Part shown: piece after piece, positions 5,968 through 21,548 of the stretch
Numbering within the stretch: the first letter of the stretch is position 1
Layout of the letters: each line of letters starts with the position of its first letter
From: a virus
Lineage: Duplodnaviria; Heunggongvirae; Uroviricota; Caudoviricetes
Strand: one strand, 5' to 3'
IMG/VR virus record: IMGVR_UViG_2671180884_000031
Length of the DNA stretch: 23,679 nucleotides
The notes under the pieces: model-generated
The model's database searches: none
Told to the model about the DNA's origin: nothing
Seen by the model: the letters and a program-made list of their open reading frames with translations, nothing else
Position numbers and translations under genes: made by a program

Positions 5968-6021
5968 ACGGCGGTAGAGCAGTCACGGAGTAAAACTGAT
6001 ACTGCCAAACGTCACCAGAAA
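5968..6021 (-). ncRNA. dicF: DicF small regulatory RNA (ftsZ-targeting antisense sRNA)
   Basis: Minus strand reads TTTCTGGTGACGTTTGGCAGTATCAGTTTTACTCCGTGACTGCTCTACCGCCGTTTTT, near-identical to recalled K-12 DicF, ending in a GC stem plus T-run; lies ~170 bp upstream of dicB as in K-12. Confidence 0.8.
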
Positions 6022-14311: not shown

Positions 14312-15565
14312 ATGTCAAAAAATCTCCCGGTTTTATTAAGCTCGCCATCAACAACTAATTTTCCTGCAACAGTTAATACTGAAATAGAATTCCTTTCGCA
14401 AGCTAGAAAGTTGTTAGATTCTGGCTTCCCTGATCATGCTCTTTTAGATATATGGAATGCATCCATTCATAATCTTAGGCGGCGAATTGAGGCTTATGGT
14501 TTAGACTTATTCCTTTCCGCAATAAAGGATGATAGTGGTCGTAAAAAATATGATAAAGATGGTGAAACAATAAACGAGAGATGGTCAGGTGTAGATGATT
14601 TAGTGCTAATAAGTGGAGCCACCAAATTAGGGGTTCTGCATAAGAAAGCTGGAAAATCATTAGAAATGATCAATTGGATGAGAAACCATGCCTCTCCAGC
14701 CCATGCAAGTGATAGTAAAGTAGAGTCTGAGGATGTGTTTGCTTTGGCTCTTATGCTCCAGAAGAATTTATTCGAATCTGATATGCCAGACCCTGGACAT
14801 TCGCCATCTGGATTATTTGAACCCATAAAAAAATCTGAACTATCAATTGAGAGCATAGACTTACTTAAAGATCAAATAAGAGCATTTAAGCAAGCTGATA
14901 TAAGAATAACATTTGGATTTTTATTGGATTTAATAACTAAGGGGGAAAATCCTGCTTATGTTAATGCTAGCAAGTTGTTTGAACAAGCATGGGAAAGATC
15001 TAATGATGACCTTAAAAAAACAGCGGGGGAAAGATATCACTCATTTATGCTGGAGCCCGAATCGGATACAAGTGAGGATAAAGGAGCAAAAATAAGAATT
15101 TTAGAGACTTTAGTAAAAGTTAATGGTGTGAAATTTATACCTGATGCTGCTAGGGCAAGTTTATACAGACATGCGGTTAAACAGCTAGCTAAAGCTAAGG
15201 ATACATCTTACGGCTGGAATGATGAAGAAAGAGCAGCCAAGGCACTTATACAATTTGGACCTCATGTTCCATCTATTGCTTTTGAAGATGTATATCAAGA
15301 AATACTTACTGTTTGGGTGGGGAATTACTGGGGAAGATCTGATGCACATTTAGTACTTCAACCATTTTTAGATGTGTTAAATAGTAATCAATTGATGGCT
15401 CTCTCACGGTTGTTCGTGGAGAATGAAAGAGCAAATTCAGAACTGGTGTCATCAAGGCCCAAAAGAAGAGCAATAGAATTACTTGAGATAATAAAAAATA
15501 ATCTAACAATTCAAGCAAGCATTGATGAAATTGATAGGATTATTTCTGAAATTGATAAAATGTAA
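14312..15565 (+). CDS. Hypothetical protein, 417 aa, with HEPN-like R-x6-H motif; candidate abortive-infection/defence protein
   Basis: AAGGAAA SD before ATG 14312; helical N-terminal region with WMRNHASPAH (R-x6-H) resembling the HEPN active-site motif; AT-rich; own terminator downstream. Confidence 0.7.
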   Translation: MSKNLPVLLSSPSTTNFPATVNTEIEFLSQARKLLDSGFPDHALLDIWNASIHNLRRRIEAYGLDLFLSAIKDDSGRKKYDKDGETINERWSGVDDLVLISGATKLGVLHKKAGKSLEMINWMRNHASPAHASDSKVESEDVFALALMLQKNLFESDMPDPGHSPSGLFEPIKKSELSIESIDLLKDQIRAFKQADIRITFGFLLDLITKGENPAYVNASKLFEQAWERSNDDLKKTAGERYHSFMLEPESDTSEDKGAKIRILETLVKVNGVKFIPDAARASLYRHAVKQLAKAKDTSYGWNDEERAAKALIQFGPHVPSIAFEDVYQEILTVWVGNYWGRSDAHLVLQPFLDVLNSNQLMALSRLFVENERANSELVSSRPKRRAIELLEIIKNNLTIQASIDEIDRIISEIDKM

Positions 15566-15577
15566 TTTATTTGCAAT

Positions 15578-15610
15578 TAAGCCATGCTTTTTAGGTGGCT
15601 TATTTTTTTT
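15578..15610 (+). terminator. Rho-independent terminator after the 417-aa gene
   Basis: AAGCCA ... TGGCTT stem followed by an 8-T run, 13 nt after the stop codon. Confidence 0.55.
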
Positions 15611-15882
15611 GAATCTACTACTTATATTGATATTAGCAATGTAATTGCTAAAGTATTCCTAGCCCACTATTCATCTAAATATGGTTGTCGAAAGGCCCGC
15701 TTCTCGCTCAAAGCGGACTAGAAGGTTAGCTTGTGTCGGACTTTGCGTATTAAATGACTAGTGGTTGAGCCCCATTTCCACAGAAAAAATCAGAGAAACT
15801 ATACCCAATAGTTGTATTGAATCACTGACGAGACAGCCTCATATTCATCAGGACTGGTGTACGTCCAATACAGGAGGTTGTG

Positions 15883-15972
15883 GTGCTGGTTCTCAAATGT
15901 GCGCTGGCTATTACGGCTGTAATGGCGATTTATTGTCTTGCTATTGTTCTTATGGATCGCCTTTCTGACTGA
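15883..15972 (+). CDS. Candidate small hydrophobic peptide (29 aa, GTG start), type-I-toxin-like
   Basis: Canonical AGGAGG SD (15872..15877), 5-nt spacer, GTG; product (M)LVLKCALAITAVMAIYCLAIVLMDRLSD is a single predicted TM helix. Overlaps a 67-aa Cys/Gly-rich ORF in another frame that is judged spurious. Confidence 0.3.
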   Translation: MLVLKCALAITAVMAIYCLAIVLMDRLSD

Positions 15973-16183
15973 TTTCACATTGGCGAGGTAACGGTAGTTA
16001 AGTAGAATGGCTGCGGGTGCTTGAGGCTATCTGCCTCGGGCATGAACACCAACGGCAGATAGAGAAAAGCCCCAGTTAACATTACGCGTCCTGCAAGACG
16101 CTTAACATTAATCTGAGGCCAATTTCATGCTAGACATATGTAGGTTAGCCTCTTACGTGCCGAAAGGCAAGGAGAAGCAGGCT

Positions 16184-16339
16184 ATGAAGCAGCAAAAGGC
16201 GATGTTAATCGCCCTGATCGTCATCTGTTTAACCGTCATAGTGACGGCACTGGTAACGAGGAAAGACCTCTGCGAGGTACGAATCCGAACCGGCCAGACG
16301 GAGGTCGCTGTCTTCACAGCTTACGAACCTGAGGAGTAA
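16184..16339 (+). CDS. hokD: Hok-family small membrane toxin HokD (RelF)
   Basis: MKQQKAMLIALIVICLTVIVTALVTRKDLCEVRIRTGQTEVAVFTAYEPEE matches recalled HokD; AAGGAGAA SD; an in-frame upstream ATG at 16127 could give an extended form. Confidence 0.8.
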   Translation: MKQQKAMLIALIVICLTVIVTALVTRKDLCEVRIRTGQTEVAVFTAYEPEE

Positions 16340-16407
16340 GAGACCCGGCGAGGGAGAAATCCCTCGCCACCTCTGATGTGGCAGGCATCCTCAACGCACC
16401 CGCACTT

Positions 16408-16439
16408 AACCCGCTTCGGCGGGTTTTTGTTTTTATTTT
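16408..16439 (+). terminator. Rho-independent terminator after hokD
   Basis: CCCGC-TTCG-GCGGG hairpin followed by TTTTTGTTTTTATTTT; a second 8-bp hairpin (GGCGAGGG/CCCTCGCC) lies at 16347..16368. Confidence 0.6.
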
Positions 16440-16555: not shown

Positions 16556-16807
16556 ATGATGAACATCGAAGAACTGCGTAAAATTTTTTGTGAAGATGGC
16601 CTCTATGCTGTGTGCGTTGAAAATGGAAATCTTGTTAGTCATTACCGCATTATGTGTTTGCGAAAGAATGGGGCTGCGTTAATTAATTTTGTGGATGGTC
16701 GAGTGACAGACGGATTTATCTTGCGCGAAGGTGAGTTTGTCACTTCATTACAGGCACTGAAAGAGATCGGAATAAAAGCAGGCTTTTCAGCTTTTGCAGA
16801 AGAATAA
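16556..16807 (+). CDS. rem: Qin-prophage protein Rem (83 aa)
   Basis: MMNIEELRKIFCEDGLYAVCVENGNLVSHYRIMCLRKNGAALINFVDGRVTDGF...; size and position after hokD as recalled for K-12 Qin. Confidence 0.6.
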   Translation: MMNIEELRKIFCEDGLYAVCVENGNLVSHYRIMCLRKNGAALINFVDGRVTDGFILREGEFVTSLQALKEIGIKAGFSAFAEE

Positions 16808-17152: not shown

Positions 17153-17708
17153 CGTGCGGGTATTACTTAGACCTGTTCTGGTGCCTGAGCTTGGGCTGGT
17201 GGTCCTTAAGCCGGGCCGTGAATCCATACAGATATTTCATAATCCTCGAGTGCTGGTGGAACCGGAACCAAAAAGCATGCGTAATCTGCCATCCGGAGTC
17301 GTTCCTGCCGTTCGCCAGCCGCTGGCGGAAGACAAAACATTGCTGCCGTTTTTTAGTAACGAACGGGTGATTCGTGCTGCTGGCGGTGTTGGCGCATTGT
17401 CTGACTGGCTATTACGTCATGTTACATCCTGCCAGTGGCCTAATGGCGATTACCATCACTCTGAAACAGTCATTCACCGTTATGGTACCGGCGCAATGGT
17501 GTTGTGTTGGCACTGCGACAACCAACTGCGTGACCAGACATCGGAATCACTGGAGCTGCTTGCTCAACAAAATCTGACAGCATGGGTGATTGACGTCATC
17601 CGTCACGCAATAAGCGGTACGCAGGAGCGGGAATTATCTTTGGCTGAATTATCCTGGTGGGCGGTCTGCAATCAGGTGGTGGATGCACTACCTGAGGCTG
17701 TATCTTAA
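17115..17708 (+). CDS. Late-gene antiterminator Q-like protein (zinc-finger), candidate
   Basis: C-terminal [10 protein letters not shown] ... CWHCDNQ cysteine/histidine cluster; sits upstream of the csp genes and the lysis cassette, as quuQ does in Qin. Confidence 0.4.
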
Positions 17709-17933: not shown

Positions 17934-18243
17934 TTTAGGGGACAGAAAAACTCCTTAATACTGATAACCTGGTGCACCATACACACGTTCCTGGAGAAAA
18001 CTACTTTTTTGATAGGGTTGAAGGTGGCTGGATGTCTAAAATAAACATTGCTTCATATGTTCAACTATGAGTTAATGACTGTGTCGGTTTGAAGAACAGA
18101 CGATATACGAAGTAGTTTACTAAAGCAGTTCTCATTTCAGGTGTTATTCACTTATTCCTTCTTTGAGTCTCTCCAATTAAGTACGAAGTCGTTTCTGTTA
18201 TGCAAACCATTTATGCCGAAAGGCTCAAGTTAAGGAATGTAGA

Positions 18244-18459
18244 ATGTCAAATAAAATGACTGGTTTAGTAAAATGGTTTAACGCTGATAAAGGTTTCGGC
18301 TTTATTTCTCCTGTTGATGGTAGTAAAGATGTGTTTGTGCATTTTTCTGCGATTCAGAATGATAATTATCGAACCTTATTTGAAGGTCAAAAGGTTACCT
18401 TCTCTATAGAGAGTGGTGCTAAAGGTCCTGCAGCAGCAAATGTCATCATTACTGATTAA
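18244..18459 (+). CDS. cspB: Cold-shock protein CspB-like (71 aa)
   Basis: [53 protein letters not shown]...; cold-shock-domain RNP motifs; long 5' UTR typical of csp genes. Confidence 0.8.
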
Positions 18460-18740
18460 AATTCATCGCTCGTCTGTATACGATAACGAAGAAGGCTGAT
18501 GCCTGAGTAGAGATACGGACAGAGTAGTGAATATTGGATCTCTTTAATAAAAAGTAAGGAGGTCCAATACATGAAACAATGGCCAGCATATTTGGCAAAA
18601 TCTTAATCAGGAAAAGTATGCTAACCATTGTGGTGAAGTGCAGGTTTGCTGCATGAATAGTTTCACAGCAGAAGCTAACTGCTGGCATCGCAAAACAAAG
18701 TGCGTAAGTGGATGACTCCCACAAAAAGCACCACAATCTC

Positions 18741-20767: not shown

Positions 20768-21129
20768 GGTAATATTAAATCGGAACATTTACATCGCGGA
20801 ATGTAAAATTTAAATAAAAAGGACTCTTCCATGAGCCAAAATTCCTGAAATCTTAAGGGTAAGATAAAAGGTCTTAATCAGAATGACACGTTTTATTAAT
20901 AAATAAAGCTATTCTTTCATTGCTGTGTTTTTCTTTACAAAAGTAATCCTTGCTATGGGTGGTTAATCATGCGTTAATGGTGTTCTGGTTTGTTACAAAT
21001 TTATCTGAAGCAGTCATTGTTATAATTTTATTATTTGTACCTCTTGAGATTTCCTTGTTGGTTTTTCTCTCTGATATTTTTTTTCGGACCATTCTGCCCA
21101 AGGGCTAATTTCTTCAAAAGGTAATAATT

Positions 21130-21342
21130 ATGTCTAACAAAATGACTGGTTTAGTAAAATGGTTTAACCCTGAAAAAGGTTTTGGTTTCATCACGCCGAA
21201 AGATGGCAGCAAAGATGTGTTTGTCCATTTCTCAGCAATTCAGAGCAACGATTTCAAAACATTAACTGAGAATCAGGAAGTTGAATTTGGTATTGAGAAC
21301 GGACCTAAAGGTCCTGCCGCTGTTCATGTAGTGGCGCTTTGA
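21130..21342 (+). CDS. cspI: Cold-shock protein CspI (70 aa)
   Basis: [70 protein letters not shown] matches recalled CspI. Confidence 0.85.
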
Positions 21343-21548
21343 GGTAGACAATATTACAAACCATATTCACTTTAGATGCCCGTGTTGTCATGGTTCCCAG
21401 TATAGAACATCATCTTTTGATGTTTCTGACATGAATCCTTTCGGGGCAAAATGTATCTTTTGTAAATCAATGATGATTACATTTGATAATATTTCACAAT
21501 ACTTAAATGCTAGCCGTCTGTCGTTGGATTTAAAAAAGTGAAAATGAA

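Follow-up and report, generated by a model that had tools for sequence, protein, structure and literature searches.

The stretch analysed here, 23,679 nucleotides (nt) of the viral record IMGVR_UViG_2671180884_000031 and hereafter called the window, is a Qin-like cryptic lambdoid prophage of Escherichia coli, and its early-right (nin-like) region carries the toxin gene hokD. The coding sequence (CDS), reported in a first-pass annotation made from the sequence alone, is confirmed at 16184–16339 on the plus strand: its product of 51 amino acids (aa) matches Pfam PF01848 (HOK_GEF) with 82.9 bits against a cut-off of 22 (E=1e-23), it is identical to the HokD protein of E. coli K-12, and the gene is named hokD in RefSeq genomes. 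The toxin gene does not stand by itself. Across 16015–16189, the Rfam family RF01794 (sok/hok leader) scores 112.7 bits (gathering score 59, E=3e-25), with a match that spans the whole model, positions 1–157 of 157; in the same test, the known hokC/sokC of K-12 and hokW/sokW of phage 933W gave 118.3 and 113.5 bits, and the K-12 Qin region that contains hokD gave no match to this family. With the elements described below, we conclude that positions 15980–16435 very probably hold a complete and canonical hok/mok/sok type I toxin–antitoxin cassette, that is, the un-rearranged form of hokD. The unit extends from about 15980 to 16435 and thus starts some 110–150 nt upstream of the interval first singled out (16127–16439). 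As a kind, the cassette is already known: it is the RNA-controlled hok/sok toxin–antitoxin unit typical of lambda-like E. coli prophages.

The hok and mok reading frames

The hok gene has its own Shine–Dalgarno (SD) sequence, GGAG at 16171–16174 (plus strand), 9 nt upstream of its ATG at 16184, and the 51-aa CDS of HokD alone is toxic on overexpression (bioRxiv 10.1101/2025.08.07.668861). Farther upstream, the first-pass annotation had pointed to an in-frame ATG at 16127 that could either produce an extended Hok or mark a mok-like coupling frame. This ATG lies 57 nt upstream of the hok ATG and indeed opens an open reading frame (ORF) of 70 codons, in frame with hokD and ending with it (16127–16339, plus strand). 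It is preceded at a distance of 8 nt by GAGG (16115–16118, plus strand), read from the sequence as the mok SD, which is homologous to the GAGG serving mok in plasmid R1 (PMC9841398) and is invariant across our alignment of 28 homologous loci from Escherichia, Kluyvera, Pseudocitrobacter, Citrobacter, Pantoea and Photorhabdus plus hokW. An ATG is kept at the mok column in 20 of 23 relatives, and its frame relative to hok varies: the two start codons are 57 nt apart, and thus in frame, at 13 loci, 58 nt apart at six and 56 nt apart at two, the 58-nt spacing giving unrelated products of 55–69 aa and the 56-nt spacing an ORF of only 19 aa. A start site that is conserved above a downstream frame that is not is the signature of a coupling frame; judging by these comparisons, the ATG at 16127 is the mok start, and what follows it fits a coupling frame better than a conserved protein. 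The idea of a chance in-frame codon was rejected; the geometry is that of the annotated mokC and mokW. In the branch formed by hokD, hokC and hokW, an in-frame mok is the normal state, as seen in mokC/hokC of K-12 and mokW/hokW of 933W.

Since mok and hok share a frame here, initiation at mok would yield a 70-aa, N-terminally extended Hok, and one may ask whether this longer protein, as a long isoform or a pro-toxin, is the relevant product and the 70-aa ORF the true functional gene, with mok more than a mere coupling frame. The two share a frame in the window, as they do in 13 of 23 relatives (hokC and hokW among them), and gene callers very often pick the longer form: the exact 70-aa sequence is found in at least 1000 contigs, where it is labelled ‘Hok family toxin’, and its 90% cluster has 900 members. 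Nevertheless, we regard this explanation as very unlikely, as close relatives in which the ATG is 58 or 56 nt upstream, and hence is out of frame or opens a 19-aa ORF, have still kept the 51-aa Hok; moreover, the 19 residues of the extension differ from one relative to another (MLDICRLASYVPKGKEKQA versus MLNTCRVPLTDRKVKEKRA), a GGAG of its own precedes hok, and the short CDS is toxic by itself. Of the two possibilities raised for the upstream ATG, the mok frame is thus borne out by the conserved start and the mokC/mokW geometry, and the extended Hok as the true functional gene is disfavoured by the lack of a conserved frame. Similarly, it is quite unlikely that the long isoform is a distinct functional product, for example differently targeted or a pro-toxin with delayed action, and not a by-product of coupling: sister loci do not keep the frame, and the sequence of the extension is only weakly preserved. 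Gene callers alternate between a 51-aa and a 70-aa ‘Hok’ for this locus.

Within the toxin gene, the hexamer TACGAA at 16322–16327 (hok codon 47, TAC, followed by GAA) is invariant in 28 of 28 aligned hok loci. UACG is the motif for A-to-I editing by TadA, which recodes tyrosine to cysteine. Position 46 of Hok homologues is a cysteine, coded through RNA editing in HokC, HokD and HokE, and about 6% of the hokD mRNA is edited in K-12 (PMC12214031).

Predicted folding of the hok mRNA and the putative sok antisense gene

A promoter for the mok–hok mRNA is predicted at 15980–16008 (plus strand) with the −35 box TTGGCG, a 17-nt spacer and the −10 box TAGAAT, matching the consensus at 9 of 12 positions in the scan; a −10 box of the type TAnAAT precedes GGGTGC by about 7 nt in most of the aligned homologues. 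The predicted full-length mRNA is about 420 nt long (16015–16435, plus strand), its 5′ end being placed by homology to R1 and the Rfam family and its 3′ end by the T-run of the terminator, and the fold of 16015–16434 has an energy of −171.4 kcal/mol (z=−6.97). In this minimum-energy fold, the two ends of the molecule are joined: the 5′ end, tac, GGGUGCUUGAGG, pairs with CCUCAACGCACCC at 16389–16401 through 12 bp with one bulge. On the basis of this fold and the Rfam consensus structure, in which GGG/GCUU of tac is paired with AAGC/CCC, we place the tac element, GGGTGCTTGAGG, at 16015–16026 (plus strand), and the fold and the alignment place the fbi element, CCTCAACGCACCC, which complements tac but for one bulged C, at 16389–16401 (plus strand). 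Alternative partners of tac could be ucb and a segment just downstream of tac itself (16033–16041). Between tac and ucb, both the fold and the alignment contain a 5′ leader hairpin, GCTATCTGCC...GGCAGATAG (16027–16062, plus strand), and the ucb or anti-SD element, AAGCCCCAG, follows at 16067–16075 (plus strand), where its pairs in the fold agree with the Rfam structure; ucb is predicted to pair with the mok SD region at 16113–16119 in the closed form of the RNA and with tac in the open form.

Downstream of hokD, the first-pass annotation had noted an 8-bp hairpin and a terminator and had suggested that these two might themselves be the fbi and tac folding elements. Both structures are present and conserved. 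The first (16347–16368, plus strand) is a conserved 3′ stem-loop with the sequence GGCGAGGGA-GAAA-TCCCTCGCC, its stem measuring 9 bp, and not 8 bp, under a GAAA loop; the second is the intrinsic terminator of the hok mRNA, found in the terminator scan at 16408–16435 (plus strand) and consisting of a stem at 16408–16425 and then TTTGTTTTTA. Their equation with fbi and tac was rejected, however, as fbi lies between the stem-loop and the terminator and tac at the 5′ end of the mRNA, 330 nt upstream of the stem-loop. In R1, the processed mRNA that can be translated ends in a 3′ stem-loop that protects it (PMC9841398), and by homology, the stem-loop at 16347–16368 would have the same function here.

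The evolutionary record of these pairings can be read from the alignment of 28 loci. Over the named helices, 89.7% of the cells are paired, compared with 42–47% when the partners are slid by one to three columns, and 17 pairs show changes on both sides, a value reached by none of 500 shuffles. With the Rfam E-value and the z-scores of the mRNA and antisense folds, the features lie far beyond chance. In the tac–fbi helix, 4 of the 12 pairs have changes on both sides, with 92.5% of the cells paired; the clearest form of this is a T-to-C change in tac that is matched by an A-to-G change in fbi, turning U-A into C-G, in seven sequences, among them the Photorhabdus and Pantoea rows with GGGCGC. The leader hairpin (helix 2) comprises nine pairs, three of them compensatory, with 96.4% of its cells paired; 6 of the 18 pairs in the helix of ucb with the SD–sokT region (helix 5) are compensatory; and the 3′ stem-loop (helix 6) is paired in 96.5% of the cells and has three compensatory pairs. 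As modelled, the tac–fbi pairing, the leader helices and the 3′ hairpin are thus supported both by the minimum-energy fold and by compensatory changes.

The opposite strand around 16100–16200 had been proposed as the place to look for the promoter of a Sok-like antisense RNA, and the candidate sok gene and its promoter were indeed located on the minus strand within 16059–16170. The gene is predicted at 16059–16135 (minus strand), with a length of about 71–77 nt; its RNA would begin with a single-stranded 5′ tail whose sequence complements the mok start region, continue into a long hairpin and end in a U-rich tail. Its 5′ end was set at 16135, and a 3′ end at 16065, by transfer of the annotation of sokW in 933W, and the alternative 3′ end at 16059 was inferred by counting the annotated ends of K-12 sokC by hand on the window sequence. 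When folded, the Sok strand forms a strong hairpin and leaves a free single-stranded 5′ tail (−30.3 kcal/mol, z=−5.67). The promoter (16142–16170, minus strand) was assigned by reading the sequence and by homology to sokW, with the −35 box TTGCCT at 16170–16165, a 17-nt spacer, the −10 box TAACCT at 16147–16142 and a G at position +1 (16135). In its −10 region, it does not differ from sokW, and a promoter-less sokW construct unmasks the toxicity of HokW (PMC8621323); the primer sequences given there indicate that the sokW −10 region is the element that was mutated in this construct.

Taken as a whole from homology to R1 hok/sok and hokW–sokW, the mechanism would work as follows. A moderately strong promoter would give rise to a stable mRNA of about 420 nt in which the 5′ tac is paired with fbi near the 3′ end, and this lock would keep ucb, the anti-SD, on the mok ribosome-binding site, such that the full-length RNA would be neither translated nor bound by Sok. 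Slow trimming of the 3′ end up to the stem-loop at 16347–16368 would remove fbi, upon which the leader would refold, tac now pairing with ucb, and expose both the mok SD and the Sok target. Ribosomes starting at mok (16127) would then read through the hok start region and allow the synthesis of Hok. The unstable Sok, transcribed from the minus strand from about 16135 to 16060, would pair with the mok start region and block the translation of mok and hence that of hok, and the Sok–mRNA duplex would be marked for cleavage by RNase III. Were the supply of Sok to stop, be it through prophage loss or induction or a shut-off of transcription, Hok would be made and the inner membrane depolarised. Possible roles for the prophage include maintenance, the exclusion of other phages and help with lysis on induction, the last of which is reported for hokW–sokW (PMC8621323).

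A number of points weigh against the reading of the locus as a complete and canonical cassette. In the window strain, the promoters, the transcript ends, the 3′ processing and the action of Sok are all assigned by homology. By consensus, the sok promoter is a weak one, and a generic promoter scan of the minus strand did not find it because only 7 of the 12 consensus positions match; it was homology to sokW that located it. When the RNA was truncated at 16372, the predicted fold did not contain a canonical tac–ucb stem and instead gave a local tac hairpin (16019–27 with 16033–41) plus GGGU:ACCC; such a local hairpin corresponds to the metastable structure described for R1 (PMC9841398). The complementarity between tac and ucb is present and matches the Rfam consensus structure, its positions being nearly invariant and showing no covariation, and the open conformation would thus be drawn from the consensus structure, the complementarity and R1 rather than from thermodynamic prediction. 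Finally, the intact chromosomal hok loci tested by Pedersen and Gerdes gave no post-segregational killing (as cited in bioRxiv 10.1101/2025.08.07.668861), and for this reason, the biological role of the cassette in a defective prophage is uncertain.

The last point leads to the suspicion that this defective prophage carries a cassette that is silent or in decay, a remnant without current function and similar in that to the chromosomal hok loci of K-12. The host prophage is defective, with a 1401-bp deletion relative to its closest genome that takes away the 3′ half of ydfU and ydfT, and in addition, the closest genome carries a cspF pseudogene. We nevertheless consider a remnant unlikely, since every regulatory element of the cassette is intact and its CDS is identical to that of the toxic K-12 HokD, and complementarity has been kept through compensatory changes across genera; furthermore, the same cassette is found in HannyBb, a phage deposited as a complete genome, and hokW–sokW, 94% identical to it, is expressed and functional (PMC8621323). 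An intact hok/mok/sok cassette remains our preferred reading.

Relation to K-12 hokD and to other hok/sok loci

In K-12, hokD is known as relF, the third gene of the relBEF operon in Qin, and the first-pass annotation had pointed out that no RelB or RelE gene precedes it here. The absence itself is confirmed: a tblastn search of the whole 23.7-kb window with K-12 RelB and RelE returned only a chance match of five residues (E=2.9), and the alternative that relBE homologues had been missed was thereby rejected. The K-12 type of arrangement is absent from the window, and where RelB and RelE would be expected, one finds the hok leader. The comparison of the two loci explains the difference. The K-12 gene encodes an identical Hok, has a nearly identical 3′ untranslated region with the 3′ stem-loop, fbi and the terminator, and is followed by the same genes, rem and ydfU; however, the identity to the window begins only at 16170, at AGGAGAAGCAGGCTATG, which holds the hok SD, and upstream of this point, K-12 has relE. 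The promoter, tac, ucb, the mok start and the whole sok gene including its −10 region have been replaced by relB–relE, and K-12 hokD retains the SD, the CDS, the 3′ stem-loop, an orphan fbi and the terminator, without antisense control. As the identity starts only at 16170, K-12 hokD is the truncated form and the window has the un-rearranged cassette; in agreement with this, a genomic rearrangement is reported to have inactivated the K-12 copy (PMC12214031, citing Pedersen and Gerdes 1999).

Rather than being an anomaly, the form without relBE is the common one. The leader together with hokD (at least 80% of 16015–16340) is present in 4032 of 5426 complete E. coli genomes, versus 1163 of the 5426 with the K-12 relE–hokD junction; by these sequence counts, hokD without relBE is the majority and ancestral-type arrangement, and the K-12 copy is rearranged and has lost its leader. 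The view of hokD as part of relBEF, formed on K-12, hence describes a derived, truncated state of what in most E. coli is a self-contained hok/mok/sok cassette on Qin/lambda-like prophages. A similar junction exists elsewhere: Kluyvera sp. CHPC 1.2972 (906–1653) has an operon of relB, a frameshifted relE and hok in which the relE–hok junction equals that of K-12 up to TTGACAG. Its fused hok allele, with 70% protein identity to HokD, is close to a Citrobacter youngae allele that has the full leader, and the orphan fbi has been kept; the fusion of relBE with hok is therefore not confined to E. coli.

The closest characterised relative of the cassette is hokW–mokW–sokW of the Stx2 phages Sp5/VT2-Sakai and 933W. 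From the −10 box through fbi, the two are 94% identical at the nucleotide level, with 23 differences over 387 nt, and they share the 51-aa Hok, a 70-aa in-frame mok starting 57 nt upstream (in 933W, mokW at 518–730 and hokW at 575–730), the overlap of Sok with the first 9 nt of mok, the sok −10 box TAACCT and a lambdoid prophage as the carrier; in 933W, mokW, hokW and sokW are all annotated, with the same geometry as in the window. Experimentally, hokW–sokW is a toxin–antitoxin system of type I, dependent on RNase III and Hfq (PMC8621323). The loci differ in the C terminus of Hok (TAYEPEE versus VDYESEK), in their terminators and in their position, the window locus lying between the replication genes and rem/ydfU/Q and hokW–sokW near the right end of the Sp5/933W prophage. 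Looked for in the nin region of Sp5 in the Sakai genome, hokW was not there; its place is close to the right end of Sp5, where it is ECs_1245.

Seven of the 23 differences between the window and hokW–sokW fall within the 18 nt of 16120–16137, that is, in the single-stranded 5′ tail of Sok and its target at the mok start. Across 28 relatives, the majority fraction is 0.65–0.67 in the segment of the Sok tail and target and in the Sok stem, and 0.60–0.63 in two short spacers, compared with 0.85–0.94 for tac, the SDs and the promoter boxes, which places the Sok tail and stem among the least conserved parts. Genomes have a median of 2 and up to 9 copies of hok/sok, and the sequence divergence of the Sok tail is consistent with a limitation of cross-talk between co-resident copies. 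The window allele is thus a close natural variant of hokW–sokW with the differences concentrated in the Sok recognition tail, and as such of use to studies of type I toxin–antitoxin systems in prophages.

More distantly, the hokC (gef)/mokC/sokC locus of K-12 has the same architecture and belongs to the same Rfam family, with mokC starting 57 nt upstream of hokC, in frame and with a shared CDS end at 16751, and with sokC overlapping the first 9 nt of mokC, as Sok does with mok here. It differs in being chromosomal and not prophage-borne, in a sok stem-loop that is 18 nt shorter (the sokC RNA is 59 nt) and in its 3′ part: in K-12, IS186 adjoins hokC, and as the similarity is lost before the position of fbi, this element appears to be lost. 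The hok/mok/sok (parB) locus of R1, in which the mechanism and the requirement for mok translation have been described (PMC9841398), shares tac, ucb, the mok SD, sokT, fbi, the 3′ stem-loop, a Sok with a single-stranded 5′ tail and a mok of 70 codons. In R1, however, the mok ATG (116–118) and the hok ATG (174–176) are 58 nt apart and out of frame (PMC9841398), unlike the 57 nt in frame of the window; the identity of Hok is about 44%, a figure reported for HokW versus Hok; and the locus is plasmid-borne and has a demonstrated role in post-segregational killing. At the other extreme, the locus in HannyBb, whose deposited genome is 45 kb long, is 99.5% identical to that of the window and has the same gene order (O-like, Ren-like, MokW-like, rem, ydfU-like and Q-like).

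The main value of the finding is in correct annotation, with little beyond that. At this locus, RefSeq annotates only the hokD CDS and leaves out mok, sok and the folding elements of the mRNA. Related records are inconsistent in their annotation of the cassette: the phage records of VT2-Sakai and 933W annotate mokW, hokW and sokW, and the RefSeq record of Sakai (35420–35632, ECs_1245) has only a 70-aa ‘regulatory protein MokC for HokC’ and no feature for hokW or sokW.

Prophage context and upstream genes

The gene order around the cassette is that of a Qin-like prophage: dicF, dicA/dicC, genes of the replication region, a block of cargo, hokD, rem, ydfU, cspB and cspI. The closest genome, strain 2018-166 (NZ_CP075632), is 99.99–100% identical over two colinear blocks, apart from the 1401-bp deletion, which lies at 17704/17705 and has taken out the Q-like antiterminator ydfT together with the 3′ half of ydfU, as far as the region of the cspF pseudogene. 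Rfam searches also recovered features expected of Qin prophages, namely the small RNA DicF at 5969–6020 (minus strand, 62.2 bits) and, before the cspB-like and cspI-like genes, cspA-type thermoregulator 5′ untranslated regions at 18083–18475 and 20984–21369 (both on the plus strand).

Between approximately 10097 and 15565, just upstream of a conserved block, the genes vary by strain. Here, the cargo consists of an SDR oxidoreductase, a helix-turn-helix regulator, a short integrase-like ORF, a 373-aa protein (phrog_12525) and a 417-aa protein of low GC content (phrog_27609); Pfam, PADLOC and PHROGs assigned no function to the 417-aa and 373-aa proteins or to a 30-aa ORF. In other strains, the same position holds a RelA/SpoT-domain protein, a SIR2-family protein or other hypothetical proteins, and in K-12, relBE–ydfV–flxA. 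The region looks like a hotspot for prophage cargo or defence genes, and relBE of K-12 may be one such cargo, the insertion or recombination of which truncated hokD.

This neighbourhood bears on whether read-through from upstream could express hokD as the last gene of an operon that includes the 417-aa ORF and others, in the way of relF in K-12 relBEF. The upstream genes are co-oriented with hokD, and the scan found no strong terminator within 15565–16015, apart from a weak internal match at 15907–15926. Expression of this kind is highly improbable, however, as the cassette brings a promoter of its own and an entire leader, which in R1 controls translation independently of the transcription context, and it stays constant where its upstream neighbours change between strains.

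Directly upstream of the hok leader lies a block of 323 nt (15692–16014) that occurs in 1482 genomes of E. coli and in a small number of mEp460-like phages, with no annotated feature beneath it in any of the listed matches; one strain holds the block without hokD. A blastn search of the block against phages found only four close E. coli phages and no divergent relatives. The block contains, a little upstream of the hok promoter, a conserved hydrophobic ORF of 29 or 30 codons (15880/15883–15972, plus strand) with the sequence M(V)LVLKCALAITAVMAIYCLAIVLMDRLSD and, 5 nt before its second GTG, the SD sequence AGGAGG; Pfam and PHROGs gave no match to it. Across five diverged copies of this ORF, 8 of the 10 variable sites are at third codon positions, and the only amino acid changes are T/A, I/V and D/E; the antisense ORF called in HannyBb contains stops in two of the five copies. 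Judging from this pattern of substitutions, the short ORF is probably a real, unannotated small membrane protein.

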